64,000 bases of DNA. Origin: an uncultured Chloroflexia bacterium. GTDB lineage: Bacteria; Chloroflexota; Limnocylindria; Limnocylindrales; CSP1-4. Position numbers and translations under genes: made by a program. How positions within the stretch are numbered: position 1 is the stretch's first letter; the number at the start of each line of letters is the position of its first letter. The stretch lies in NCBI GenBank assembly GCA_963698505.1, contig CAVORC010000023.1, positions 14,034 through 78,033 on the forward strand. Reading direction: 5' to 3'. This document shows, in pieces, positions 20,087 through 60,208 of this stretch. The notes beneath the pieces were generated by a model that did no database searches, was not told where the DNA came from, and saw only the letters and a list, made by a program, of their open reading frames with translations.

Positions 20087-21195
20087 CTACACCAGCCTGG
20101 GCGAGTGGGACTGAACCTCCGCCTTGAGACGCTCGTAGCCGGGCTTGATGACGCCGTTGATGAGTCGGAGGCGTTCATCGAAGGCGAGGAACGACGACTT
20201 CATCGCGTTCGTCGAGAGCCATTGCATCTCGTCGAGTCCGATGTCGAATGTCCTGCTGAGCGTCTCGAACTCATCGCTCAGGCTTACGCCACTCATGAGC
20301 CGGTTGTCGGTGTTGACGGTGACGCGGTAGCGCAACCGACGAAGCAGGTCGATGGGGTGCTGCTCGATCGAGGCGACAGCCCCCGTGTGCACGTTGGAGG
20401 TCGGGCACATCTCAAGTGGCACGCGGTTGTCGCGCACGAACTGCGCGAGGCGGCCGATGTGGATGTCTCCGTCAGGCGCGACCTCGATGTCATCCACGAT
20501 GCGGACCCCGTGTCCCAGGCGCTCGGCGCCGCACCACTGCAGCGCCTCCCAGATCGAGGGCAGCCCGAATGCCTCCCCGGCGTGGATGGTGATGTGGAAG
20601 TTCTCGCGGTGGATGAGCTGGAAGGCATCGAGATGCCGGCTGGGCGGGAACCCGTCCTCGGGGCCGGCGATGTCGAAGCCGACGGTCCCCTGATCTCGGT
20701 AGCGGACGGCCACCTCGGCGATCTCGACCGAGCGGGCGAACTGGCGCATGGCGGTCACGATGGCCCGGATCACGATGGGGTTGCCGGCCGCTGCTGCGGC
20801 ATCGGCGCCCTGCTGCAGGCCCTCGAGCCAGGCCCGCATGACCTCATCGAGTGACAGGCCCGCCTGCGTGGACAGCTCGGGCGCGTAGCGCACTTCCGCA
20901 TAGACCACGCCATCGTCCGCGAGGTCCTGGGCGCACTCCGCCGCGACGCGGGCGATAGCCTCCGGGGTCTGCATCACCCCGACCGTGTGCCTGAACCCCT
21001 CGAGGTACAGCTCGAGGGAGCCGCGGTCGGCCCCCGAGCGGAACCATCGCCCCAGCTCGGTCGCATCCCGGTGGGGAGGCCGCGGTAGCCGGTCTCGCGC
21101 GCCAGCTCGATGACGGTGGCCGGACGCAGCCCGCCATCGAGGTGGTCGTGCAGCAGCACCTTGGGGGCGCTGCGGATCGTCTCCCTGGTGACCAT
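20087..21195 (-). pseudogene. add: adenosine deaminase, apparent frameshift near codon 45
   Basis: [42 protein letters not shown] is in one frame. [12 protein letters not shown]...[10 protein letters not shown]...TIHAGEAFG...RLGHGVRI...CPTSNVHTG...TVNTDNRLMS is in the next. Colinear with mycobacterial Add as I remember it. Confidence 0.8.
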
Positions 21196-21232
21196 GTGCT
21201 GATGGTACCGCCGATGCCGGGCTCCTCGTTGG

Positions 21233-22051
21233 GTGATACTTCGACGCGTGAGCCAGCGCAGGGATCCCCGTGTGACGTTCCTCGGCCACGCGACGCTCCT
21301 CATCGAGATGGACGGGGCCCGGGTGCTGACGGATCCCATCCTGCGCTCTCGCGTCGGGCCACTGACACGGTCGGCCGGACCACCCGACCGCAAGCACTGG
21401 GAGAAGCCGGACGCGGTGCTCATCTCCCACTCACACTGGGACCATCTCGACTACGGCTCCCTTGAGCTGCTGGGCACCGACATCGATCTCATCGCGCCCC
21501 TCGGCCAGGGTGCCGAGCTGCGCCGCCACGGCTTCCATCGCGTCACCGAGGTCGTGGAGGGCGACGACGTCGAGGTCCGCGGTCTCGTCATCGAGGCGGT
21601 CCACGCCGAGCACAAGGGCTTCGGGCCACCCGTCGGCGGCACCGAGCTGGCGCTGGGCTTCATCATCCACGGCTCGCAGCAGCACTACTTCGCCGGCGAC
21701 ACTGCCTTCTTCGAGGGCATGACGGACTTCGACATCGGGCTCGACCTGGCGCTGCTGCCGGTTTGGGGCTGGGGTCCGACGGCCAAGCCGGCCGAGCATC
21801 TCGATCCGATGGGTGCCGCGCGTGCGGCGGCCGTCATCAAGCCCCGCATCGCCATCCCCATCCACTGGGGCACGCTGCACCCGGTCGGACTCCACTGGGT
21901 GCGCCCATCGACGCGCATCGACCCGCCACACCAGTTCGCGCAGCTGGTGCGTCGGCTATCGCCCGATACGATCGTGCGCGTGCTGCCCAATGGCGCCTCG
22001 CTGGTGGTACCGCCGTCGTCGCGCGGCAGCCTCCCGCGAGAGACGGCCTAG
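21233..22051 (+). CDS. MBL-fold metallo-hydrolase
   Basis: [22 protein letters not shown] and FAGDTAFF are beta-lactamase-fold motifs. Confidence 0.8.
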
Positions 22052-42278: not shown

Positions 42279-43301
<1,023 letters not shown>

Positions 43302-43302
<1 letters not shown>

Positions 43303-43732
43303 CAGTCGCGGATGGGTCGAGAGGCGGCGCGTCCGAACTCACGCCGCTCGACACCGCGACCCATCCAGCCGATGACGATGGCGGAGGCCCCCAGCAGCAG
43401 GTGACCCAGTTGATCGAAGCCCGATGCCGGCGGCGTCATAGAGGCCGAACAGGTCCGCCGTGAGCAGGCTCAGCACGCCCGGTGGCCAGCAGGAAGATGC
43501 CCAGGCCGATCAGGCCGTAGGCGCGGTTGCGGCCGTTGAGCGCGACCCCCACATGCAGGAAGAGGGCGCCGCAGACGAGGTGGATGAGGTCATGGCCGAA
43601 GCCGGTCACGAAGATGCCCGTGGTGTCTGGTCGGCCCACGATGGGGTTGCCGATGGAGCCGGCGATGCCAAGCACGATGAGGATGGTGCCCGCCACCATG
43701 GCGAAGCTGCGCTCCAGCCCCAACGAGCTCAT
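43302..43732 (-). pseudogene. DUF4383 family membrane protein, two apparent frameshifts
   Basis: GGAGG RBS. MSSLGLERSFAMVAGTILIVLGIAGS...GHDLIHLVCGALFLHVG is in the first frame. It is followed by VLSLLTADLFGLYDAAG and then FDQLGHLLLGASAIVIGWMG...stop, in two other frames. The stop overlaps the moaA start. Confidence 0.5.
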
Positions 43733-47384: not shown

Positions 47385-48664
47385 ATGGCCGACTGGGATA
47401 TCGAGTCCATCCGCTACCGCTTCCCGTCGTTGCGCCGGCCGGGGCCCGACGATCAGCCGGTGGCCTGGCTCGACAACGCCGCAGGCACGCAGGTGGTCGA
47501 TACCTGCCTGCGGGCGATCAACGACTACCTGCTCGACAGCAACGCCAACCGGGGCATGCCCTTCGCCGCCAGCCTGGAGACCGACGAGATCCTGCGTGAC
47601 ACGCGCCTCGCCATGGCCGACCTGATCGGCGCGTCCGATGCCGACGAGGTCAGCTTCGGCGCCAACATGACCACCATCACGTACGCGGTCAGCCGCGCCA
47701 TCGGCGCCACGCTCCGTCGCGGGGACGAGGTCGTCGTCACTCGCCTGGACCACGACGCCAACGTGGCACCGTGGCTGGCGATGGCCCAGGAGCGCGACCT
47801 GGTCGTGCGCTGGGTGGGCTTCCACCCGGAGGATGGCGGTCTCGACCTGGACGAGCTGGAGAGCGTGGTCGGTGCGCGCACCCGGCTGGTCGCGGTGGGA
47901 CTCGCCTCCAATGCCTTCGGCACCGTCAACCCGGTGCCGCGCATCGCGCCGACTGCACGCAGGCCGTGGGGGCGCAGCTCTTCGTCGACGCCGTCCATGC
48001 GCTGCCGCATCTGCCCATCGACGTGGCTGCCCTCGGCGCCGACTATCTGGTGTGCTCGCCGTACAAGTCGTACGGTCCGCATCTCGGCGTGCTGTGGGGC
48101 CGACGCGAACGGCTCGAGGCCCTGCCGCCGTACCACCTGCGCCCCGCTGGCGACACCATCCCCGGCCGGTTCGAGACAGGAACCCAGCCGCACGAGCTGC
48201 TGGCGGGGCTGGGCGGTACGCTGCGCTATCTCGAGAAGGTCGGCATCACCCAGGGCGGCGCGCCCGGAACGCCTGGCCAGGGCGACCGGTTCCGTCGCCC
48301 GCGTCTGCTGGCGGCGATGAGCGCCATCCGGCGCTACGAGAGCGACCTTTCAGGCCACCTGCTCAGGCGCATCGGCGCCGTGCCCGGAGCGCGCATCTAC
48401 GGTCCCCCAGCAGCCGCGGCGGTCCAGGGTCGCTGCCCCACCGTCGCCTTCACCGTCAGTGGTCTGCGGCCGGCAGACATCGCGCGCTTCCTTGCTGAGC
48501 GAGGGATCTACGTCCGGCATGGTGATCACTACGCCTGGGAGGCCCACCGCTGGCTCGGCCTGGACCAGGCGGGCGGCACCGTTCGGGTCAGCCTGGCCCA
48601 CTACAGCACGGACGATGAGATCGAGCGCCTGGGGACAGCCCTCGACGAGCTGGCCGGCGCGTAG
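47385..48664 (+). pseudogene. class V aminotransferase / cysteine desulfurase-like protein, apparent frameshift
   Basis: WLDNAAGTQ...VVVTRLDHDANVAPW...LASNAFGTVNPVPRIA continues in another frame as DCTQAVGAQLFVDAVHALPH...CSPYKSYGPHLG (PLP lysine)...VRVSLAHYSTDDEI. Confidence 0.75.
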
Positions 48665-48666
48665 CG

Positions 48667-50338
48667 TCAGTCCGCCCGGGGCCTGACCCAGCCCGGCAGC
48701 TGCGCACGCAACACGTCGAGCGGCAGGGAGCCGTGGCCGATGACCGCGTCGTGGAAGGCCTGCAGGTCGAAGCGATCACCATCTCGCGTCTCGAGCTGCC
48801 TTCGCAGCTGCAGGATCTCGCGCTGCCCGATCATGTAGCTCAGGGCCTGTCCGGGCCAGGCGATATAGCGGTCGGTCTCGATCTCGGCGTCGAGGCGTGC
48901 CAGGCCGGCGCGCGCCACGAGCAGGTCGATCGACCGCTGCCGCGTCCAGCCGAAGGCGTGCAGGCCGGTGTCGACGACGAGCCGGGCGGCGCGGTGGGCC
49001 TCCGATTCCCAGGCACCGAAGCGCTCCAGCGGTGTGCGGTAGAGACCCATCTCGGCGGCCAGTCGCTCGGCGTACAGGGCCCAGCCCTCGACGTAGGCAC
49101 CGCAGGCGAGGAGCGCTCCGTAGCGCCGGAACGCCGGCAGATGGCTGAGATGCCGCTCTGCGGTGAGCTGGAAGTGATGGCCCGGGACGGCCTCGTGGAA
49201 GGTCATCGGGACGGCCTGGTGCAGCGGCCGCGAGGGCGGGTCATAGGTGTTGAAGTAGTACCGGCCAGGGCGGCTGCCGTCATCCGCGGGTGGGTAGTAG
49301 AAGGCCGCTGGCGCGTCTCGCTCCAGGTTCGGCTCCACCGCCACGACCGCGCAGCGCTCGGCTGGCGGGTCGCCGAACCACCTCGGGCGCCTCGGCCTCG
49401 GCACGGGCGACCCACTCCCGTGCCGCCGCCACCAGTGCCGCCGAGTCCTCGAGGTGGTTCGCCGGATCCCGGTCCAGGAACACGCGCAACGAGGCCACGC
49501 TGTCGTGTCCCAGCTCGGCGGCGATGGGTGCCTCCGCGGCCTCGATCTCGTCGAGGCGGGCAAGCCCGTAGGCGTGGATGGCCGCTGGGTCCTCGGCGAG
49601 ATTGGTGTAGGCCAGGATGTGGTGCCGGTACACGGCATCGCCGTCGGGCAGGTAGCACACGCCCGGTCCCGGACGGGCATGGCCGGCGTACCCTTCCAGC
49701 GTCGCCAGCCATGCCTCCAGCGCCGGCTCCACGTGCCGGCGCACAGCGCCCAGCAGGCGCGCACGCTGGTCGTTCCCCAGCTCCGGGTTGGCCTCGACGA
49801 GTGGCGACGCCTCCGCCGGCGTCTCCACCATGCGGCGCGTCTGCTCGATGCAGCGCTCGATGACCTCGATCGGCGCCGTGCGCCCGGCCGCCACACCCTC
49901 CGAGACGTTGGCGGCGTGTGCTGCCATCCAGGCGGGGTAGGCAGCGAGACGGGCCAGCAGCCGCTCGAACCGCTCCGGGGTGTCGGTGCGCGCGAAACGT
50001 GCCAGCTCACTGGTCAGTGTCTGCGGGCCGTTGATCTGGTCGAGCGCGTCCATCTGCCACAGCCGCAGCTCATGCGCACTGCGGAACCGTCTGACCACGG
50101 CGCGCATCAGTCCCAGCGTGACGGCGTCCTCCACCGACAGGTCATCGGAGCCCAGCTGCTCGATGCGGCTGGCCCAGCCCTCGACCATCGTCACGTGGAC
50201 CGCTCGTCCGGCCGCGGAGGGATCGTCAAGGCGGTCGTCCCAGCGCTCGTCACCCTGGACGGTCGCCCACAGCGGATGCTGCGCCAGGAACTCGTCCCAC
50301 GCTCGGTCGGCGAACACATGCACCGGGGTGGCGCTCAT
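48667..50338 (-). pseudogene. DUF885 domain protein, apparent frameshift
   Basis: GAGGAAGGAA RBS. MSATPVHVFADRAWDEFLAQHPLWAT... switches frame near 49378-49386 to WFGDPPAERCAVVAVEP...FHEAVPGHHFQ...YVEGWALYAE. Paralog of the C-terminal 554 aa of the next gene. Confidence 0.75.
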
Positions 50339-50376: not shown

Positions 50377-53300
50377 TCAGGCGTGCCTGGGGCTGACCCA
50401 GCCCGGCAGCAACGCCCTCAGTGTCGACAGGGGCAGGGAGCCATGGCCGATGACCGCGTCATGGAAGGCCCGGTGATCGAAGGCGCGGCCATCGCGCGCC
50501 TCGAGCTCGGCGCGGGCCGCAAGGATCTCGCGTTGCCCGATCATGTAGCTGAGGGCCTGTCCGGGCCAGCTGATGTAGCGATCGGTCTCCGTCTCCGCCT
50601 CCAGCCATGACAGGCCGGCTCGCTCGACCAGCAGGTCGATGGACCGCTGACGGGTCCAGCCGAGGGCATGGATGCCGGTATCGACGACCAGGCGAGCGGC
50701 ACGCCAGGCCTCGGTCTCGAGCGCGCCGAAGCGCTCCAGCGGCGTGCGGTAGAGCCCCATCTCAGCGGCCAGCTGCTCGGTGTAGAGCGCCCAGCCCTCC
50801 ACGAATGCCCCGCCGGCCAGGCGTGAGCCGAACCGTCGGAACGCGGGCAGAGCGGTGAGCTCCTGCTCGAGGGCGATCTGGAAGTGGTGGCCGGGGACAG
50901 CCTCGTGGAAGGTCGCGGCCGGGATGCGGTGCAGGTGCCGCGAAGCCGGCTCGAACGTGTTGATGAAGTAGATGCCCCGGCGCGATCCGTCCTCGGTGGG
51001 TGGCATGTAGAACGCGGGTGGCGCTTCCTGCTCCATGTGCGGCTCCACTGCCCGGACCTCGCAGGTATCCCGCGGCAAGCGGCCGAACCAGGCGGGGGCC
51101 TCAGACTCCGCTCGCGAGATGAGCTCGCGAGCGACCTCCACGAGGTCGGATGGCTGGCCCACGTGGTTGGCCGGGTCCACCTCCAGCTGGGCACGCAAGG
51201 CTGCCACATCAGCGAGACCGAGCTCGGCGGCGATGTCTCGTTCCTGCTCGTCGATCTGGGCCAGGCGCAGCAGGCCGTACTCGTGGATAGCGCGAGGATC
51301 CTCCGAGATGGTGGTCCAGGCCAGGATGTGGTGGCCATAGAGCGCCTCGCCATCGGGCAGGTGGCAGATGCCGTCACCACCGCGGGCGTGCTCGCGATAC
51401 CCCTCAAGCATGCGCAGCCACTCGCGCTGCGCCGGGAGGACGTGCTGCTCCACGGCACCCACCAGCGCCGCTCGGTCCGGCTCATCGAGAGCGGCGTTGA
51501 CGGCCACGATGGGCGACTCCTCGGCAGGTGTCTCGACGATCCGCCTGGTCTGCGCCAGACAGCGCTCGATCACGGGTGCCGCGGCCGTCCGACCGGCAGC
51601 GATGCCGGCGGCGAGGTTGGCTCGGTGCGCCGCCATCCAGCCTGGGTACTGCTCCATGCGGGCGAGCAGCTTCGCCAACCGCTCCGGGGTATCGGCGCGC
51701 TGCAGGCGAGCGAGGTCGCCGATGAGCGCCTGCGGGCCGCTGTACTGGTCCATCGCCTCCATCTGCCACAGGCGCAGCTCCTCTGCCTCTCGCGTTCGCG
51801 CGATGACGATGCGGATCAGCTCCAGGGTGATGGTGTCCTCGGTCGACAGGGCCAGGCCGGCGAACCCATCGATCTCGGCCTCCCAGGCATCCGCCAGGAC
51901 CAGACCTGCGGCGCGGCCGTCCGGGCCGGGGTCGCCCAGGCGGTCATCCCAACGCTCGTCACCCTGCGCCGTTGCCCACAGCGGGTTCAGCTCGAGATAC
52001 TGCTCCCAGGCGCGGTCGGCGAAGGCGTGGACGGGCGTCACTGCGGGCTCGGGCAAGGGTCGGGTCTCCTCTGGCGTCGCGTGATCGGGCCGAGCGATCA
52101 GGAAGCGAACATCGGCATCTGGTCCTCTCCCGCGATCGACCTCGGGGTCGAGCCCCAGCAGAGGTCCCAGCGCGGAGAGGCTGGCGCGCTCGGCTGCGTG
52201 CAGGCGGCGCACGCTACTCCACTTCAGGATATGCCAGTTGTCCCGCTCAAGGCGCTGGCGCAGGACGGGTGAGCTCGCCAGCCGCAGCCGAAGCAGGGGC
52301 GTTCGCTCGTCCGGCACGACCAGGAAGCGCACGATGCTGTCGGTGGTCTCGATGCGGGGACCACGCTTCAGCACCGGCTCGTCGAGCACGGCCTGCCACT
52401 CCACGTCGAAGAGGAACGCGCCCTTGCCGCGGACGTACCAGATGCAATCGAGCTGCTCCAGCAGCTCCTGGGGGCCGGGCGCCACCAGCGGCAGGTAGAC
52501 ACGTTGCTCAGGATCGCTCAGCAGGTCCCCCAGCGTGCCGTCGCGGTACCGGCGCCGTTGCTCCCGGCGGGCGATCCAGACGCGCATCCCGGCACGGTGG
52601 GCGAAGTCGGTGAGCAGACCCACCATCTCGCCGTGCTCGGCGTAGCGCTGCTGCAGCGACTCGTCGCAGTGGATGAGCCCGTCTTCGGGCGGTCGCTGGC
52701 TGCGATAGCTCTCAAGACACGCCTCGACCAGCTCGGCATCGGCGGTCTCGGGACCACGGAACAGGCGCGCCACGCGATCATCGAAGGCGCCGCGGCTGAG
52801 ACCGCCGCTCGTGGTCAGCAGGCTGAAGATGCCCCACTCCACGCGCTCCGACAGCGGCTGCTTGGCGGCGGCGAGGTCGCGCGCGTCGCGCAACCACCAG
52901 AGCTCGTCGTCGACCTCCTGCAGGCGTGGGTGGTCGGCCCGACGCAGCTCACGACGGATGATGTCCAGCGTCAGGCGAACCGGATCCGAGACCGGCCCGC
53001 GGTCGCTCCAGTCGACACCCTCCGGCGTCGCGGCTCCGGCCGGAGACTCCGCACGGCCGGCGTCGCGCCCCTCTGCGGTCACGTCGGCGGCGTGCGTGGC
53101 CGAGGGATCGCTGACCACGCCGAAGAGCCCGGTCTCGCGCTCGACCCCCTCCTCGTCCTCGTCCTCCACGGCACGTGGCGTGCCCACGAGCCGTCGCAGG
53201 TGACCCAGGTGGTCCAGTCCCAGCAGCACCTCGCCCAGGATGCGCATGAAGCGCGTCGGCTCGCCCCGCAGCTGCATGACCGCGACGGCGATGTCAGCGA

Positions 53301-54810
53301 CTGCCGACCCGACAGCCGAGATCTGGAACGGTCCCGACGGGTCCGATGTCGAGCGGATGGCCACATCGCGCGTGCTGGCGACCGCTGCCGCCTGCCCGAA
53401 CTGGACGTGACCATCGACGCCCTCGGGTGTCTCGCCCAACACCGCGTCGTCGACGCGCATGCCGGCACCGACCCCTCCGATGACCGTGGCCACGAGAGCC
53501 TCGGGGCTGGCCTTGGCGAGCATGATGACCGTTTGGGCGTCGGGCAGGAGGACCGGCTGCACCGCGCTCAGCGCGCGCTGCAGGGTCGAGGCATCGCGTG
53601 CCCACTCCGAACGCGGGGCTGCCCCGAAGAGCGACGCCAGCGGTAGCGTCGCGGCGCCCTCGGGCCCGATGGCGAGCGAGGATGCGAGGTAGGCGAAGCC
53701 GAGGTTGTCTGCTGACCAGTGGATGGGAGGCTGGCTCAGCACCAGCCGGATGCCCGGCCGTACGCGCGGCCGCGGCCCAGGTTCGACGCCGGCGCGGGGC
53801 GGGGGCCCGAACGTCTCGCGACCGTGTGGCACGCCGAACCGAAGAGCAACGTTGGCCGAGCCGTCCTGCAACGAGCGCAGGTCCGGACCCACCCGCGCCG
53901 GCGTGTGGGCGCCCCCGGCCTCGAGCGCGGCCACGAACTCACGCACCGCCCTGGTGCCCTCCTCGAACGCCAGCCACGCGTTCCGCTCGCGCCACTGGCG
54001 TGAGCTGGAGCCGCGCACCTGGCCGCCGCTGATGCGCACCTGCGCCATCCGTCCCGGGTACCCGTTGAGCCGGCTGACAGGCAGCACCATGTGAAGGACC
54101 GCCAGGCGCAGGGCTGCCTGGACCGAGGGAGCGCGCAGCTCGGTCTCGATCCGTTCGAGGATGGCCACCAGGGCGACCTGCGCCCGGGGCGGAAAGAGGT
54201 CGACCAGCTCGTCTGGCAGGGCGTGGTCGGCCGTGGGCACGGGAAACCGCTCGCGCAGCGCGGCGCGTGCCGCGGCTGCATCGACCGAGCGCGCTCGATA
54301 GAGGTCGTCGGGATCGACCGGGAGCGGCCGCTTCTCCGTGCGCTTGTCGCGACAGCGCGGACAGCTGAAGGCCTTGCGCGACGGGTCGCTGGCCTCGGCA
54401 TCCCAGATGAACTCGCTGACCGTGACCGTGTTGCCGCAGCTGGGGCAGCGCGAGGCGTAGCTGGCCTCGATGCTCGAGCGCAACCCGCCCTCCATGCCGC
54501 GGGCGTCGACCGCGATGCCGGAGACCGCCGCGTCCAGGTGGCGCAGGTCCGGCGGACGCAGCACGACTTCTGCGACCAGCCGCGTGAGCGCGCTCGACTC
54601 GACGACGAAGGAGCGGCGCAGGCTGTCGATGGCACTGCGCGTCACCCAGCCTCCGCGTCCGTGCAACTCGAGCACGACATCCCCGGCCTTCGTACGCGAC
54701 TCGAGCTGCGCCCGCAGCACGCCCGGCTCGGGCACCGGCGCCAGTCGCTCGAGCGCGGGCAGACGCGGACTCCGTGCCTGGGTCCTGGGAGACTGTCGAG
54801 CGTCCGCCAT
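50377..54810 (-). CDS. 1477-aa multidomain protein: degenerate Zn-ribbon methyltransferase-like region + PD-(D/E)xK-like module + DUF885 domain
   Basis: A single uninterrupted frame with normal amino-acid composition, while the overlapping frames are Arg/Ser/Pro junk. Zn ribbon CPSCG-x24-CPRC (aa 122-154). LVLSQPPIHWSADNLGFAY (aa ~356-375). DCIWYVRGKGAFLFDVEWQ...RFLVVPDER (aa ~788-835). The DUF885 domain starts at aa 924. Confidence 0.7.
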   Translation of the reverse strand: MADARQSPRTQARSPRLPALERLAPVPEPGVLRAQLESRTKAGDVVLELHGRGGWVTRSAIDSLRRSFVVESSALTRLVAEVVLRPPDLRHLDAAVSGIAVDARGMEGGLRSSIEASYASRCPSCGNTVTVSEFIWDAEASDPSRKAFSCPRCRDKRTEKRPLPVDPDDLYRARSVDAAAARAALRERFPVPTADHALPDELVDLFPPRAQVALVAILERIETELRAPSVQAALRLAVLHMVLPVSRLNGYPGRMAQVRISGGQVRGSSSRQWRERNAWLAFEEGTRAVREFVAALEAGGAHTPARVGPDLRSLQDGSANVALRFGVPHGRETFGPPPRAGVEPGPRPRVRPGIRLVLSQPPIHWSADNLGFAYLASSLAIGPEGAATLPLASLFGAAPRSEWARDASTLQRALSAVQPVLLPDAQTVIMLAKASPEALVATVIGGVGAGMRVDDAVLGETPEGVDGHVQFGQAAAVASTRDVAIRSTSDPSGPFQISAVGSAVADIAVAVMQLRGEPTRFMRILGEVLLGLDHLGHLRRLVGTPRAVEDEDEEGVERETGLFGVVSDPSATHAADVTAEGRDAGRAESPAGAATPEGVDWSDRGPVSDPVRLTLDIIRRELRRADHPRLQEVDDELWWLRDARDLAAAKQPLSERVEWGIFSLLTTSGGLSRGAFDDRVARLFRGPETADAELVEACLESYRSQRPPEDGLIHCDESLQQRYAEHGEMVGLLTDFAHRAGMRVWIARREQRRRYRDGTLGDLLSDPEQRVYLPLVAPGPQELLEQLDCIWYVRGKGAFLFDVEWQAVLDEPVLKRGPRIETTDSIVRFLVVPDERTPLLRLRLASSPVLRQRLERDNWHILKWSSVRRLHAAERASLSALGPLLGLDPEVDRGRGPDADVRFLIARPDHATPEETRPLPEPAVTPVHAFADRAWEQYLELNPLWATAQGDERWDDRLGDPGPDGRAAGLVLADAWEAEIDGFAGLALSTEDTITLELIRIVIARTREAEELRLWQMEAMDQYSGPQALIGDLARLQRADTPERLAKLLARMEQYPGWMAAHRANLAAGIAAGRTAAAPVIERCLAQTRRIVETPAEESPIVAVNAALDEPDRAALVGAVEQHVLPAQREWLRMLEGYREHARGGDGICHLPDGEALYGHHILAWTTISEDPRAIHEYGLLRLAQIDEQERDIAAELGLADVAALRAQLEVDPANHVGQPSDLVEVARELISRAESEAPAWFGRLPRDTCEVRAVEPHMEQEAPPAFYMPPTEDGSRRGIYFINTFEPASRHLHRIPAATFHEAVPGHHFQIALEQELTALPAFRRFGSRLAGGAFVEGWALYTEQLAAEMGLYRTPLERFGALETEAWRAARLVVDTGIHALGWTRQRSIDLLVERAGLSWLEAETETDRYISWPGQALSYMIGQREILAARAELEARDGRAFDHRAFHDAVIGHGSLPLSTLRALLPGWVSPRHA

Positions 54811-54847: not shown

Positions 54848-55798
54848 TCAGTCCTCCTCGAGGTCCTCGTCATCGTCGCCGACCGAGACATCGTCGTCTT
54901 CGTCGTCGTCTTCGTCGTCGTCGGCGTCGTCCTCGCCTTCGATCTGGAAGCCTTCCTCGGCATGGGTCTCCGGCGGAAGCACCGAGCCGATGTCGTCGAA
55001 CGATTCCGGCTCCTCGTCGAACTCGAGATCATCCTCGAGCTCGGCCTCTTCCCGCACGAGCGTGCCCTTGGTGTACGGGCGTAGGTCGGAGACCTTGGCA
55101 GCCGTGGGGAACGAGACCTTGCCGTAGTTGCTCGGGTCCTGGTAGGTCTCGCGGATGATGATGCGGACATCCTCGTCGCCGAGGCTGGTGACACCGGCGG
55201 CGTACTTGTTGCCATCCGCCATGAGACGCAGCAGCCGCGCCGCCACGCGTGGCTCGACGACGCCGATGCGGACACCGTTGGAGCTGGCGACCACGCGCGG
55301 ACCGGATGGCTCCAGCTCGACGAAGTCACCGGGGTTCACCTGCGCCAGGTCCATGGGGGCGGCGAGGTCGACCAGGTGCGCGAAGCCGGTCTTGCCGGTC
55401 TCTTCGACGAAGATGCTCACCGGGGCCTTGCTGCCGGGCGAGGCGGGGACGGTCTTGGAGCCGGCGTCGACCATCAGCATGCGCAGGCGGCCGATGTTGC
55501 GCTCGGCGATGCGATTGGTGGGGTCGATGGCCAGCGCCGACTGATAGTGCTCCCGTGCCTGCCCCAGCTCGCCCTGCTCCCAGTAGGCCTTGGCCACGCG
55601 GTTCTCGGCTGCACTGTCCGGGCCCATCTCCAGGATCTTCTGGTTGATCTGCGCAGCAGTCACCCAGTCGGCCTTGCGGGCAGCATCGATGGCCTGCTCG
55701 ACGAGCTGCCGCTTCTGGCGGCTGGCGGTGATGGCGCTCGAGACAGCAGCCGGTTCGTTCTCGGTCAGGGGGTCGAAGCTCATTCGTTCCTCGGGCAT
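54848..55798 (-). CDS. TPR-containing protein with beta-rich central domain and poly-acidic C-terminal tail
   Basis: N-terminal TPR-like AKAYWEQGELGQAREHYQSALAIDPTN. Central GDFVELEPSGPRVVASSNGVRIGVVEPRVAARLLRLMADGNKY. The tail is GEDDADDDEDDDEDDDVSVGDDDEDLEED. Confidence 0.7.
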   Translation of the reverse strand: MPEERMSFDPLTENEPAAVSSAITASRQKRQLVEQAIDAARKADWVTAAQINQKILEMGPDSAAENRVAKAYWEQGELGQAREHYQSALAIDPTNRIAERNIGRLRMLMVDAGSKTVPASPGSKAPVSIFVEETGKTGFAHLVDLAAPMDLAQVNPGDFVELEPSGPRVVASSNGVRIGVVEPRVAARLLRLMADGNKYAAGVTSLGDEDVRIIIRETYQDPSNYGKVSFPTAAKVSDLRPYTKGTLVREEAELEDDLEFDEEPESFDDIGSVLPPETHAEEGFQIEGEDDADDDEDDDEDDDVSVGDDDEDLEED

Positions 55799-55900: not shown

Positions 55901-57733
55901 TCAGAAGCGGTGCGGTTTCTCCCGCATCAGCTTGATGAAGGCCGCCCGCGGCAGGGTGTTGGCCACCAGGCCGCGGCCGACCCAGCCGCGTCGAGCGATA
56001 GCGGCCCCCCAGGCCAGTCCCTGCCACTCGCGTCGCTCATGAGCGTCGGAGTCGATGGTGAAGCGGCAGCCGGCATCGATGGCCGCCCGGACATGGTGCT
56101 CGTCGAGGTCCAGGCGTGCTTCGCTGCCGTTGATCTCGAGCAGGGTGCCGGTCTCCGCCGCCAGCCGGTAGAAGGCCTCCCAATCGAGGTCGAGCTCAGC
56201 GCGCCGGCCGATCTTGCGACCGGACGGATGGCTGATGATGTCGACATGCGGGCTGCGCATGGCCAGGGCGTAGCGTGTCATCAGCTGGGCCCGCGGCTGG
56301 CGCCGGCCCACGTGCAGCGAGGCTACCACCACGTCGAAGCGCGACAGCAGCTCGTCGTCGTAATCGAGTCGCCCATCCAGCGTGATCTCCAGCTCCGTGC
56401 CATGGAGCAGCCGAAAGCCGGAAGGGGCAGCGCCGGCAGGCAGCAGACCAGCTGCCTCCTCGCGCGCGAAGCGCTCGTTGAGCTCCGCGATGACGCGACG
56501 CTGCGCCTCCACGCGCGCGGGCGAGAGACCGTTGGCGATGGTGAGGCTCTGCGAGTGATCGGTCAGCACCTGGTACTCGCGGCCGTCACGTCGCGCCGAC
56601 TCCACCATCACGTCCAGCGACTCGCGACCGTCGGACCAGTCGCTGTGACTGTGGCAATCGCCGCGCAGGTCGTCGCGCCGCACGAGGTCGGGCAGCGTGC
56701 CCGCCTCGGCGGCCTCGATCTCGCCCCGTCCCTCACGCAGCTCGGGCGGGATCTCGGGCAGGCTCAGGAACGCGTAGAGCTCGCCCTCCGAGGCGAACGT
56801 CCTGGGCGGGGCCCCGGCGTCATCGAGCGGCACGAGGCCACGCTCCGAGAGGGACATGCCCATCTGGCGGGCCCGGTGGCGGAGGGCCACGTTGTGGGCG
56901 GCGGCGCCCGTGAAGTGGACCAGGTAGCTGCCCGTCTGGCCCGGAGGCATCGTCATCACGTCCACTCGCGGTCCATCCATGAGGCGCAGGCTGGTGCGGT
57001 CACCGCCGCTGGGCATGCCGCCCCCGACCGCGCCCGCCGTCCCCTCCAACGACGCCAGCACCGTCTTCGGCGATGCCGTCTCGACGAGCACGTCAAGGTC
57101 GCCGACCGTCTCGCAGCAGCGTCGCACGGAACCGGCTGCGGTGGCGCTGACCACGCCTGGCAGCGCTTCGATGAGCGCGACCAGCCGCGCCGCGAGGGCG
57201 TGCGCCTCCCCCATGAGCATGCGCCGCGGCGGACGCTGCTGCAGCTCCGCGACACCAGCAAGGATGCGTGCCTCGGTACGCGCGCTCACGCCCTTCAGCT
57301 GGCGCAGGCGGCCCTCGCGCGCGGCCACCTCCAGCTGGGGCAGGGTGGCGATGCCGAGCCCGCGCCAGAGCTCGCCCACGGTGCGCGGACCGACCCCGGG
57401 GATGGCCAGCAGCTCCAGCAGCGTCGGCGGCACTTCCTCGCGCAGGGCCCGGTGATAGCCCAGCTGACCGCTGATGGCCAGCTCACGGATGCGCTCCGCG
57501 ATGCTGTCGCCGACGCCTCGCAACCGTGGTGGGTCGCCGGCTCGATAGGCGGCCGCGACGTCGACGCTGCTGCGGGCCACCGAGTCAGCCGCACGGCGAT
57601 AGGCGCCTACCTTGAAGGAGGACGCATCCTTGATGTCCAACAGGTCGGCGATCTCGGCGAGGGTCGCCGCGATGCGAGCATTCGTCAGCGGCGCCGCCAC
57701 ATCCAGCGGCGGCCTGGTCTCTCGTGGCGTCAC
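55901..57733 (-). CDS. DNA polymerase/3'-5' exonuclease PolX (Pol beta-like domain + PHP domain)
   Basis: HhH motifs (GVGDSIAERI, IPGVGPRTV), the nucleotidyltransferase GSVRRCCETVGDLDVLV, and the PHP domain GDCHSHSDWSDG...TDH...DSDAH. Confidence 0.9.
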   Translation of the reverse strand: MTPRETRPPLDVAAPLTNARIAATLAEIADLLDIKDASSFKVGAYRRAADSVARSSVDVAAAYRAGDPPRLRGVGDSIAERIRELAISGQLGYHRALREEVPPTLLELLAIPGVGPRTVGELWRGLGIATLPQLEVAAREGRLRQLKGVSARTEARILAGVAELQQRPPRRMLMGEAHALAARLVALIEALPGVVSATAAGSVRRCCETVGDLDVLVETASPKTVLASLEGTAGAVGGGMPSGGDRTSLRLMDGPRVDVMTMPPGQTGSYLVHFTGAAAHNVALRHRARQMGMSLSERGLVPLDDAGAPPRTFASEGELYAFLSLPEIPPELREGRGEIEAAEAGTLPDLVRRDDLRGDCHSHSDWSDGRESLDVMVESARRDGREYQVLTDHSQSLTIANGLSPARVEAQRRVIAELNERFAREEAAGLLPAGAAPSGFRLLHGTELEITLDGRLDYDDELLSRFDVVVASLHVGRRQPRAQLMTRYALAMRSPHVDIISHPSGRKIGRRAELDLDWEAFYRLAAETGTLLEINGSEARLDLDEHHVRAAIDAGCRFTIDSDAHERREWQGLAWGAAIARRGWVGRGLVANTLPRAAFIKLMREKPHRF

Positions 57734-57739
57734 GCCGGC

Positions 57740-59026
57740 TCAGGCGGCCACGACACGGTCCCGGCCGAGACGCTTGGCACGGTACAGTGCCTGGTCGGCG
57801 CGCTCGACGAGGCCGGGGATGGCGACCTGGTCGGGGCCGGCGACCGCTACGCCGACAGAGACCGTGACCGGCTCGTCGATGCCCAGGCTGGCCGGATGCA
57901 GGCGCACGACCTCGCGCCGGATGCGCTCACCGACCTCGATGGCCTGTTCGGCCGAGGCGCGCCGCAGGAGCACGGCGAACTCCTCGCCACCGTAGCGCGC
58001 GGGGGTGTCCTCGGCCCGCACGCCCTGCGTGATGGCCCCCGCCACCGCACGCAGGACCCGATCACCGGTGGCGTGCCCGAAGCGGTCGTTGAGGATCTTG
58101 AAGTGGTCGATGTCGACCATCAGGATGCCCAGGCTGTCATTGGCCCTCCGCCGGGGGCGCTCGATGGCGAGGACCTCGTCGAAGTAGCGTCGGTTCGGCA
58201 GGCCGGTCAGCACATCGATCTTGGCGCCACGCTCGGCAGCCTCGAGGGCGTAGGCGCGCTGGAACGCGGTGGCGACCTCGTTGGCGGCCCAGGCCAGCAG
58301 CCGGCGGTCACCTTCGCTCCAGGCCTCACGCCGACGCCGCGCCAGCAACAGGGCGCCGAGGAAGCTGCGGCCTGCGACGAGCGGCGTGGCCAAGGTGTGC
58401 GCCAGTCCATAGGCAGAGCGCACACGGCGCGCGATCTCCTCGGCCGCCGCGGCAGCCGCATCCGACGATTCGCCGGCGCTCTCCCCTACCCCTTCATCGA
58501 GCTCGTCGCTGTCGAGCGCACCGGGCGCATCGATCTCCGGCCGCAGCGTGGTTCGCGATGGTGGTGCATCGGCCTGTGCCGCCACCAGCGTGACCTCCAC
58601 GTTCATGTCGGGCTGGCTGACCCGCGCCACGACCACGTGGTCGGCATCGGTGGCCGAGCGCAGGTCGCGGATGACGGTGTCGACGACCGACTCGGGCGAG
58701 AGCGAGCGTGACAGGCCGGTCACGATGCGGCGGACGCTCGCCTCGCGCTCGAGCCGATTGCGAGTCAGCGCCTCGATGGTGGCGTAGGACACGTAGAGCG
58801 CCAGCACCAGCGCCACGAGGGCCACGGTCAGCAGCAGGTCGGCCGGACCGATGCCACCCTCGTAGAGCAGCCAGCTGGCGACCAGCGCCAGGACTGCGAG
58901 GCTGGCCAGCAGGACGCGCCGGGCGGAGCGCAGCCGGCGGTTGAGCTGGGCGTCGGCCAGCGTGCCGGGCGCGATCTCAAGGTCGTCTGCGGCGGCGGAG
59001 CCCGATGCGGGAGCAGGGTCGGTCAC
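57740..59026 (-). CDS. membrane-anchored diguanylate cyclase (GGDEF domain, GGEEF active site)
   Basis: GTG start 72 nt after the LCP stop. Two TM helices, then a GAF-like middle region. DVLTGLPNRRYF...DIDHFKILNDRFGHATGD...ARYGGEEFAVLL...YRAK. Confidence 0.8.
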   Translation of the reverse strand: MTDPAPASGSAAADDLEIAPGTLADAQLNRRLRSARRVLLASLAVLALVASWLLYEGGIGPADLLLTVALVALVLALYVSYATIEALTRNRLEREASVRRIVTGLSRSLSPESVVDTVIRDLRSATDADHVVVARVSQPDMNVEVTLVAAQADAPPSRTTLRPEIDAPGALDSDELDEGVGESAGESSDAAAAAAEEIARRVRSAYGLAHTLATPLVAGRSFLGALLLARRRREAWSEGDRRLLAWAANEVATAFQRAYALEAAERGAKIDVLTGLPNRRYFDEVLAIERPRRRANDSLGILMVDIDHFKILNDRFGHATGDRVLRAVAGAITQGVRAEDTPARYGGEEFAVLLRRASAEQAIEVGERIRREVVRLHPASLGIDEPVTVSVGVAVAGPDQVAIPGLVERADQALYRAKRLGRDRVVAA

Positions 59027-59097
59027 CGACCGAGGATGGCACAGCACAGCAGCGCGTGCGACTCTCCGCGATGCCGCGCGCCGCCGGTGGCGGCTCG

Positions 59098-60208
59098 CTA
59101 GCCGCCCTTGACCTTGTAGAAGTGCTTGTCGACCCAGTCGCGGATGCGCGGCAGGTTGGGCCGCGTCGTGCCGTCGGCGGCCAGGCCGGCCCACGTGGCG
59201 GGCGCCAGCACCTTCATGTTCGTTCGGGGCAGCTTCATCCCGTCGAGCAACGCGAAGAGCTGCGCCGCTGCCTCGGTCGTCTTGGGGATGTTGGTCTCGA
59301 TCTTGTCGCGCACGTTGAGCAAGCGTGCCCAGCAGGCGGATGCCGGCGCCCTCGTCCTCCAGCACGTCCTTGACCGCGGCGCGGACGATGTCCTGCTGCC
59401 GCTCGGCCCTGGCCCAGTCGCTGTTGAAGCTGTCGCCGAAGGTGCCGTGGCGCGAACGGGCATAGACCAGGGCGCTGTGGCAGCGCTTGGGCTTGGGCTT
59501 GCAGTGCGGGTCGCCCTTCAGCAGGTAGTTCTTCTTCACGGGGAACCAGATGCCGCGCGTGTTGTGGTGGTGGTACGACGAGTCCACCACCTCCTTCTCC
59601 ACGTCCACCCGAACCCCACCGAGCGCGTTGATGAGGTTGGCGAAGGTGGCGAAGCGAGTCATCGCCCAGTAGTCGATGGGCGTGCCCAGGAAGGCGCCGA
59701 TGTCCTTGCTGAACCGCTTCATCGCCTTGCGGTCGACGGCGCCGTGTCCCAGCGAGGGATCGCGATAGCGGATGTAGTAGATGGAGTTCACGCGCATGCC
59801 GCCACTGCTGCCACCGCCGGCGAAGGGGATGCCCGCCATGTCGCGCGGGATGCTGACCACGGCCGCCTGGCCGGTGGTGGGATCGATGGTGGCGACCATC
59901 AGCACGTCCAGTCGCTCGCCGGGAGCATCGGGCCGCCAGTCCGAGCCGACGAGCAGCATCGTCAGGCGACCATCCTTGCCCAGCTTCAGCGGCAGGCCCG
60001 AGCTCGGTCGCGTGGTCTTCTTCTGCTTCTTGTTGTTGCGCGAATTGGTCGCCAGCTGGCGCATGGCATCGACGGCCACCCGCAGACCATCCTCTGCGCC
60101 GGTGGCGCCGGGGCCCAGGGCCAGCGCCGGTGACGAGCCGGCGAGCAGCAGCAGCGACAGCACCATCGCGGCGATGCGCGTCGTCTTCACGTGTCCCACG
60201 GAGGTCAA
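59098..60208 (-). pseudogene. LytR-CpsA-Psr (LCP) family protein, apparent frameshift
   Basis: Signal/TM segment. TMLLVGSDWR...RLDVLMVATIDPTTGQAAVVSIPRD...YARSRHG...DWARAERQQDIVRA is in one frame. The C-terminal LLNVRDKIETNIPKTTEAAAQLFALLDGMK...KVKGG-stop is in another. The shift is near 59317-59326. Confidence 0.7.

Follow-up and report, generated by a model that had tools for sequence, protein, structure and literature searches.

Does the longest protein-like frame of this locus encode one enzyme of an undescribed kind, or have separate genes been read as one? The DNA concerned, hereafter the window, is a stretch of 64,000 nucleotides (nt) from an uncultured Chloroflexia bacterium (GTDB class Limnocylindria; contig CAVORC010000023.1, positions 14,034 to 78,033), and the frame is an open reading frame (ORF) of 1477 codons at 50377..54810 on its minus strand. 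An earlier note, made from the letters of the sequence, had described this ORF as a single protein joining a degenerate zinc-ribbon methyltransferase-like region, a PD-(D/E)xK-like nuclease module and a complete DUF885 domain. We find that the reported three-part architecture is not a real feature of the genome: the locus holds two adjacent genes, here called gene 1 and gene 2, which a frameshift joins into one composite ORF.

The description of the frame itself was accurate. The ORF starts with ATG, has no internal stop over its 1477 codons, and in every 100-codon window shows a GC content of 0.79-0.92 at third codon positions (GC3) and of 0.42-0.62 at second codon positions (GC2). This is the coding signature of a genome of 70% GC, indicating that the frame is coding throughout. 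A Pfam scan of the ORF returned one significant domain, DUF885 (PF05960), at amino acids (aa) 943-1467 with an E-value of 5e-143; the match scores 478.9 bits against a gathering cut-off of 32.4 and covers profile positions 1-531 of 532, so that the complete C-terminal DUF885 domain that had been claimed is confirmed. Over the first 920 aa, Pfam gave just sub-threshold zinc-ribbon matches at about aa 121-155. No match was obtained for the ORF protein in NCBIfam or PADLOC, and a sequence search of PDB chains with the N-terminal 920 aa and with the family profile returned chance zinc-finger matches only (E ≥ 0.12).

Two genes around position 52128

The relatives of the N-terminal part settle the question of architecture. 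A search with the N-terminal 920 aa found 1502 homologues, and our statements on length rest on the matches listed. Among the listed homologues, those spanning the region (97% of the query) are ~850-1040 aa long, come from Chloroflexota metagenome-assembled genomes (MAGs) and stand alone, with no fusion to DUF885; the closest of them, P0001, is a stand-alone protein of 904 aa and 95% identical. The contig that encodes it, L001, is collinear with window positions 42093-64000 at 92% nucleotide identity, and carries the 904-aa gene and then, after a spacer of 41 nt, two successive DUF885 genes of 559 aa and 556 aa. By tblastn between the window and L001, aa 1-895 of gene 1 are covered in one frame, and the 559-aa DUF885 protein of L001 is covered over aa 1-558 at 94% identity. 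In the window, gene 1 therefore occupies 52098..54810 on the minus strand and encodes 904 aa once corrected, and gene 2, assigned by tblastn and Pfam, occupies 50377..52056 on the same strand and encodes a 559-aa DUF885 protein from a TTG start at 52056. Within the intergenic spacer of 41 nt (52057..52097), read from the sequence, AGGAG at 52066-52070 resembles a Shine-Dalgarno sequence and precedes by 9 nt the TTG codon at which the L001 DUF885 protein starts aligning. Gene 2, which has a ribosome-binding site and a TTG start of its own, encodes an unremarkable member of the DUF885 family (PF05960), with a match to the full model and the HEAVPGHHFQ block. It is followed by a tandem paralogue, an arrangement also seen in L001 and L005.

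What joins the two genes is one base. The alignment of the junction with L001 contains a single extra base in the window, an A on the minus strand at position 52128 (52128..52128) within CGCGGG[A]GAGGAC, 30 nt before the native stop of gene 1. Both L001 and a second relative, L006, which are ~94% identical to the window in nucleotides across the junction, lack this A, and the frame of L001 runs on as ...DRGEDQMPMFAS up to its stop codon. Without the extra A, gene 1 of the window would end ...RGEDQMPMFAS at a stop at 52098; this native end, EDQMPMFAS followed by the stop, is intact in the window at 52098-52127, in the other, original frame. The extra A moves reading into the frame of DUF885 and, the spacer being free of stops in that frame, the composite ORF results.

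We then considered how general the two-gene arrangement is. Scanning one genome per GTDB species identified 335 related loci, 80 of which were retrieved for comparison. No relative with a junction that can be aligned in nucleotides has the extra base, and this holds for L006 too (97% protein identity). In 82 of 83 loci, the stop of gene 1 lies 8-40 codons past the residue aligned to aa 894, and relatives with an intact end encode a ~900-aa protein with an (E/D)Q(L/M)x(L/M)F tail, followed by a spacer of 15-41 nt and a DUF885 gene with its own start. The sole exception is L027 (MAG MFD09964.bin.2.79, L027:8705-9350), in which one base is missing inside the codons of the tail motif, here a putative sliding-clamp-binding motif (ATGCC-TGTTC), and the gene reads 215 codons into its DUF885 neighbour. 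This read-through is an artefact of like nature that arose independently, from a different indel. The earlier note had set whether orthologous loci are split as a check on its own proposal; the region is split in relatives, and a family of such fusions is thereby refuted.

Accordingly, a genuine family of methyltransferase-like, nuclease and DUF885 fusions, as first proposed, is to be regarded as exceedingly improbable: it is backed only by the open frame of the window and by the partial read-through in L027, which stems from a different indel, while no DUF885 domain and no such length occurs among the 1502 matches or the best 150 cluster representatives of an exhaustive profile search (none of the latter exceeds 1252 aa), and distant members of the family are not even adjacent to DUF885. 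We give equally little credit to a regular linkage of the two genes through programmed ribosomal frameshifting or recoding. It would draw on their adjacency and nothing more; the relatives need no shift, there is no slippery heptamer at the site, and the window differs from its relatives by an insertion in the DNA and not by a conserved signal. We consider it highly likely that two separately translated genes have been run together by one extra base, the base itself having most likely entered as an insertion error in the assembly consensus. One property of the site argues against such an error, in that the extra base lies outside any long homopolymer (GGG-A-GAGG).

Some further observations were made on the relatives. 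Many of them belong to the ‘MFD’ MAGs, and their contigs bear names like ‘contig_N’, which suggests long-read assemblies. One such MAG, MFD09779.bin.2.43, has two copies of the locus on different contigs, L006 (97% protein identity to the window) and L022 (72%), which are either paralogues within the family or the product of a bin that mixes two related populations. A considerable part of the family's database entries (P0066, P0074, P0076 and many of P0131-P0269) have ends that are Arg/Pro/Ser-rich or truncated, suggesting that frameshifted gene calls are common for this family in high-GC MAGs.

Single-base insertions elsewhere in the window

If the extra A is an error, it need not be the only one. 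Over the 22 kb shared by the window and L001, all uncompensated indels are single-base insertions in the window, with no uncompensated deletions, and L006, where it overlaps, is also without the window's insertions. An 822-aa ORF (57740..60208, minus strand) is a spurious fusion of LytR_cpsA_psr and GAF-GGDEF, caused by one insertion within LytR at 59321 and another at 59068 in the spacer; in relatives, separate genes of 362-377 aa and 409-428 aa stand there. The second, tandem DUF885 gene (48667..50338, minus strand) is split in two overlapping frames by an insertion at 49383, one of which covers the Pfam profile from 1 to 310 and the other from 303 to 532; its product is 556 aa long in relatives, and it is ~73% identical in nucleotides to the first. 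Frame changes also affect an Aminotran_5 gene (47385..48661, plus strand; insertion at 47953-47955), a gene of 142 aa (43305..43732, minus strand; insertions at 43477 and 43432) and MoaA (radical SAM / Mob_synth_C; 42282..43302, minus strand; insertion at 42621). In the frameshifted genes of the shared 22 kb, protein identity to L001 stays at 87-97% beyond the shift. Such identity in the new frame indicates that the broken genes are not decayed pseudogenes. Since several conserved genes are hit, by insertions only and without downstream decay, assembly error is the most likely explanation.

A GC3 frame-switch scan of the whole window, intended to count frameshifts, was not diagnostic. Its first ten ORF pairs were rejected as frameshifts, being normal adjacent genes; at such a high GC content their stop-to-stop frames overlap. 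A second set of candidates from the scan contained one more genuine split gene, for adenosine deaminase (20087..21450, minus strand), in which the parts of the Pfam A_deaminase domain lie in two ORFs: profile positions 1-32 in ORF 20974..21450 and positions 30-329 in ORF 20087..21430. This suggests a further frameshift, beyond the region covered by relatives.

These insertions bear on the remaining alternative for the junction, namely that the extra A is real and that gene 1 and DUF885 became fused in this strain in the recent past, yielding a 1477-aa protein minus the conserved tail. The ORF is open, the spacer happens to be stop-free in the DUF885 frame, and gene 1 adjoins DUF885 in 66 of 75 related loci, which would make a fusion mechanically easy. 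Against this, the event would be unique among more than 80 loci and would remove the most conserved short motif of the family, the nucleotides of the displaced tail are identical to those of the relatives against an overall identity of 94%, and at least five other nearby conserved genes carry the same kind of unique single-base insertion, which is implausible as biology for MoaA and for a class V aminotransferase. We therefore judge a real insertion to be quite unlikely.

Domains of the gene 1 protein

With gene 2 separated, the reading of the N-terminal 900 aa can be considered on its own. The family of ~900-aa proteins to which gene 1 belongs is restricted to Chloroflexota and annotated as hypothetical only, and our literature searches on DUF1156 and NmeDI returned no description of it. 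The domain reading of the earlier note is largely supported, as both a methyltransferase-like fold and a PD-(D/E)xK-like module are indicated; the structural matches on which this is based are weak. An AlphaFold model of aa 1-894, computed with 37 aligned sequences, has a mean pLDDT (predicted local distance difference test) of 79.6, with disorder at aa 1-12, 476-495 and 544-608.

The first part, at about aa 29-540 (53191..54726, minus strand), is a methyltransferase-like region of the class I Rossmann type with large insertions, modelled by AlphaFold mostly at pLDDT 80-94 and compared by Foldseek. Among the top 50 Foldseek matches in the PDB, almost all are class I S-adenosylmethionine-dependent methyltransferases (such as NNMT and Bud23), with E-values of 0.012-0.13, probabilities up to 0.99 and target-normalised template modelling (TM) scores of at most 0.42. 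Conservation and hhalign place a motif I-like loop, VVLELHGRGGWVTRSA, at aa 45-60 (54631..54678, minus strand), after strand β1. In the model, VVLELHG forms a strand that leads into the conserved HGRGGW loop, and the next strand ends in the invariant E71; H50, G51, R52, G53 and W55 of the loop are conserved among 37 homologues. A degenerate motif IV block, RLVLSQPPIHWSADNLGFAYLA, follows at aa 354-375 (53686..53751, minus strand), where RLVLSQPPI is a later strand, succeeded by P362 and W365, both invariant within the clade. The HGRGGW loop, the strand ending in E71 and the RLVLSQPPI strand together fit the motif I/II/IV arrangement that had been deduced from the letters, and the strings QPPI and LDCIWYVRGKGAFLFDVEW singled out there are present and lie inside conserved blocks.

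The catalytic consensus (D/N/S)PP(Y/F/W) is absent from motif IV of the window protein, which has QPPI. Across the family, the tetrapeptide is QPP[I/V/L] in 110 sequences and RPPY, APPR, QPPS or SPPP in distant members, a variation that fits the earlier judgement of a non-canonical, probably inactive motif. The distant clade belongs to the same family (hhalign probability 100%, E 1e-110), with VLDPFC... aligned to the glycine loop, which in that clade is lost or degenerate (DPFC plus variable residues). Partial matches to Pfam N6_N4_Mtase (PF01555) occur in 20 of 24 distant members, with a best E-value of 5e-8. In one of them, P0151, aa 30-71 match profile positions 169-210 at 19.8 bits against a cut-off of 26.7, and the match coincides with the stretch that hhalign pairs to the glycine loop. 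The window protein itself gave no methyltransferase match in Pfam at E ≤ 1. The attribution to DUF1156/COG1743 could not be confirmed: PF06634 (DUF1156) did not appear among the hmmscan matches, either of five close members (E ≤ 1) or of the 24 distant ones (E ≤ 10).

The zinc ribbon, recognised from the start as CPSCG-x24-CPRC, is borne out by conservation in two clades and by the weak zinc-ribbon matches in Pfam. Its four cysteines are C122, C125, C150 and C153 (54352..54447, minus strand); C122 and C125 are invariant and C150 and C153 are present in at least 90% of 37 homologues, and all four are invariant in the distant clade. Gene 1 resembles the N6/N4 amino-DNA-methyltransferases in its probable class I fold, in the motif I-like strand and loop, in the strand ending in Glu and in a hydrophobic strand that leads into a ‘PP’ motif IV block. 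Its zinc ribbon is inserted between motifs I and IV, and the DUF1156/COG1743 zinc-ribbon methylases named in the earlier note are a subtype of these enzymes. Unlike them, gene 1 has the tetrapeptide QPPI, which varies freely in the family, and members of the distant clade have lost the glycine loop. The family is very probably derived from methyltransferases without being a conventional amino-methyltransferase.

A disordered linker of variable length (aa 544-608; 52987..53181, minus strand; pLDDT 28-43), which accounts for the length differences between homologues, separates this region from the C-terminal part. The latter was also modelled separately (aa 609-894), with a mean pLDDT of 88.5 and a predicted TM-score of 0.84. 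It begins with a helical, winged-helix-like region at about aa 609-700 (52711..52986, minus strand), for which Foldseek gave cullin WHB domains over ~70-90 columns at E 0.56 and above and target-normalised TM-scores up to 0.67; the Foldseek output carries no query ranges, and the placement of these matches on aa 609-700 is our own.

The nuclease-like module follows at about aa 719-880 (52171..52656, minus strand), with E725/H726, D788, D802 and E804 as candidate catalytic residues. In the model, this unit has the order α-β-β-β-α-β. Foldseek matches to it are weak (best E 0.014) and dominated by PD-(D/E)xK nucleases; MspJI, Card1, Nt.BspD6I, NucS (2vld), Can2, YaeQ, XPF, Mus81 and SfsA are among them. 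Many of the listed homologues carry precomputed matches to Pfam PF27126 (NmeDI_C), some of them weak or faint. D788 lies before strand 2, strand 3 reads F-(D/E)-[VI]-E-W in 116 of 126 sequences, D788 being conserved along with it, and in the preceding helix E725 is nearly invariant and H726 invariant. R.NmeDI, after which PF27126 is named, is a 351-aa enzyme whose gene overlaps its methylase gene (PMC2095814). The gene 1 family resembles PD-(D/E)xK nucleases, and specifically the C-terminal domain of R.NmeDI, in the NmeDI_C matches of homologues, in the order of strands and helices, in the Asp before strand 2 and in the (D/E)-x-E on strand 3; it differs from R.NmeDI in that the domain ends a solitary protein of ~900 aa, with no partner methylase, and from the signature in having Glu in place of Lys.

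Gene 1 is plausible as an active nuclease, given that Glu at the place of the Lys is known from BamHI. Several points count against the picture of a decayed methyltransferase coupled to a nuclease. Firstly, the Limnocylindria clade strongly conserves HGRGGW, E71 and QPPIHW, and a ligand-binding or even catalytic pocket may persist in gene 1. Secondly, all structural matches of gene 1 are weak, none reaching E ≤ 0.001 in Foldseek, and the PF27126 annotations belong to the homologues. Lastly, E804 stands where the PD-(D/E)xK signature has Lys, which is atypical.

The C-terminal tail, genomic neighbours and proposed function

A feature that the composite ORF conceals is the native C-terminus of gene 1. 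The frameshift at 52128 removes from it exactly QMPMF (52107..52121, minus strand), a putative sliding-clamp-binding motif which is out of frame in the composite ORF. The sequence Q(L/M/I)x(L/M)F is found within the last few residues of 154 of 269 family sequences, and those without it are mostly truncated or end in Arg/Pro/Ser-rich, frameshifted-looking stretches; at the level of loci, the Q..[LM]F tail was found in 82 of 83. It reads QMPMF, QLALF or QLPLF in the class of the window and VQLTLF, VQLSLF or AQLPLF in the distant clade. In the model, pLDDT falls to 53-60 toward the tail. The consensus of bacterial β-sliding-clamp-binding motifs is Q-L-x-L-F, typically at the C-terminus (PMC4549789). 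The agreement, not previously noted for this locus, suggests that the gene 1 family consists of clients of the sliding clamp DnaN.

Among known proteins, the closest functional analogue would be EndoMS/NucS of Actinobacteria and Archaea, a clamp-activated mismatch endonuclease of the PD-(D/E)xK type (PMC6159521, PMC6159515), and the Pyrococcus abyssi NucS structure 2vld is one of the weak structural matches listed above. Gene 1 has no sequence relationship to EndoMS/NucS and is about four times larger, and in place of the N-terminal domain of that enzyme its DNA-recognition part would, judging from the model, be derived from a methyltransferase.

The neighbourhood of gene 1 is conserved within the class. 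As the earlier note had seen, gene 1 lies in a co-directional block with PolX: a TPR protein (54848..55798) and PolX with its PHP domain (55901..57733), both identified by Pfam, are encoded upstream on the same minus strand and are conserved neighbours. Where related loci have enough flanking sequence, the TPR gene precedes gene 1 in all 68 and PolX lies upstream in 51 of 68, and DUF885 is directly downstream in 66 of 75. This synteny holds over 42%-97% protein identity, pointing to a stable chromosomal locus, unlike a mobile defence island. The neighbours differ in the distant clade, with a PIN/Phd toxin-antitoxin pair at one locus, a divergent recA-recX at another and ftsY at a third, indicating that adjacency to DUF885 and PolX is specific to the class and no requirement of the family. 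The tabulation of DUF885/PolX adjacency that had been called for is thus positive within the class and negative in distant members, and we downgraded the link to DUF885 as a clue to function.

At the second of these distant loci (L087:6579-10415), the gene for P0222 (804 aa) is divergent from recA-recX at a distance of ~300 nt, with rny, dnaG and rpoD beyond. The nuclease block of P0222 is degenerate (FAFHQT) and its C-terminal AQLPLF tail is retained.

Taken together, the parts of gene 1 would fit a clamp-tethered nuclease of DNA processing or repair. The C-terminal tail would anchor the protein to the sliding clamp DnaN; DNA would be recognised by the vestigial methyltransferase together with the zinc ribbon and the winged-helix part, and cut by the conserved acidic cluster of E725, D788, D/E802 and E804. 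In the class, such a protein would be encoded in the conserved TPR-gene 1-DUF885 block, usually just downstream of PolX. We put forward tentatively, as a possibility we hold at somewhat less than even, that the family represents an undescribed class of clamp-tethered nucleases, in which the decayed methyltransferase and the zinc ribbon recognise DNA and the QLxLF tail delivers the enzyme, and which acts with PolX in a repair pathway specific to Limnocylindria. It tells against this proposal that clamp binding of gene 1 is deduced from a motif of five residues.

The proposal has to be weighed against a solitary restriction or defence enzyme, that is, a Type IIG-like nuclease with a decayed methyltransferase that is not associated with the clamp. 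In its favour, the nuclease domain takes its name from the restriction enzyme NmeDI, the N-terminal part shows kinship with N6/N4 DNA methylases, and one distant member adjoins the PIN/PhdYeFM toxin-antitoxin pair. PADLOC gave no match, however, and no partner methyltransferase is present in any inspected locus (no DNA methylase gene is adjacent in L001-L005 or in L086-L089); the synteny is stable from 42% to 97% protein identity, a clamp-binding-type tail is conserved, and one distant member divergently adjoins recA-recX. We consider a restriction or defence enzyme unlikely.

For genomes such as this one, the locus demonstrates that in DNA of 70% GC, where off-frame stops are rare, a single-base indel can yield a convincing giant ‘fusion’ ORF, and the joining of LytR and GAF-GGDEF is a second such spurious fusion in the same window. 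The value that remains is modest and lies with the gene 1 family, comprising ~1500 clusters at 50% identity annotated as hypothetical only, in which a methyltransferase fold without a conserved catalytic motif is joined to a nuclease-like domain and a clamp-binding-type tail. Should the link to the clamp prove true, the bacterial sliding clamp would gain a new client, and a class of Chloroflexota that has received little study would gain a candidate repair nuclease.

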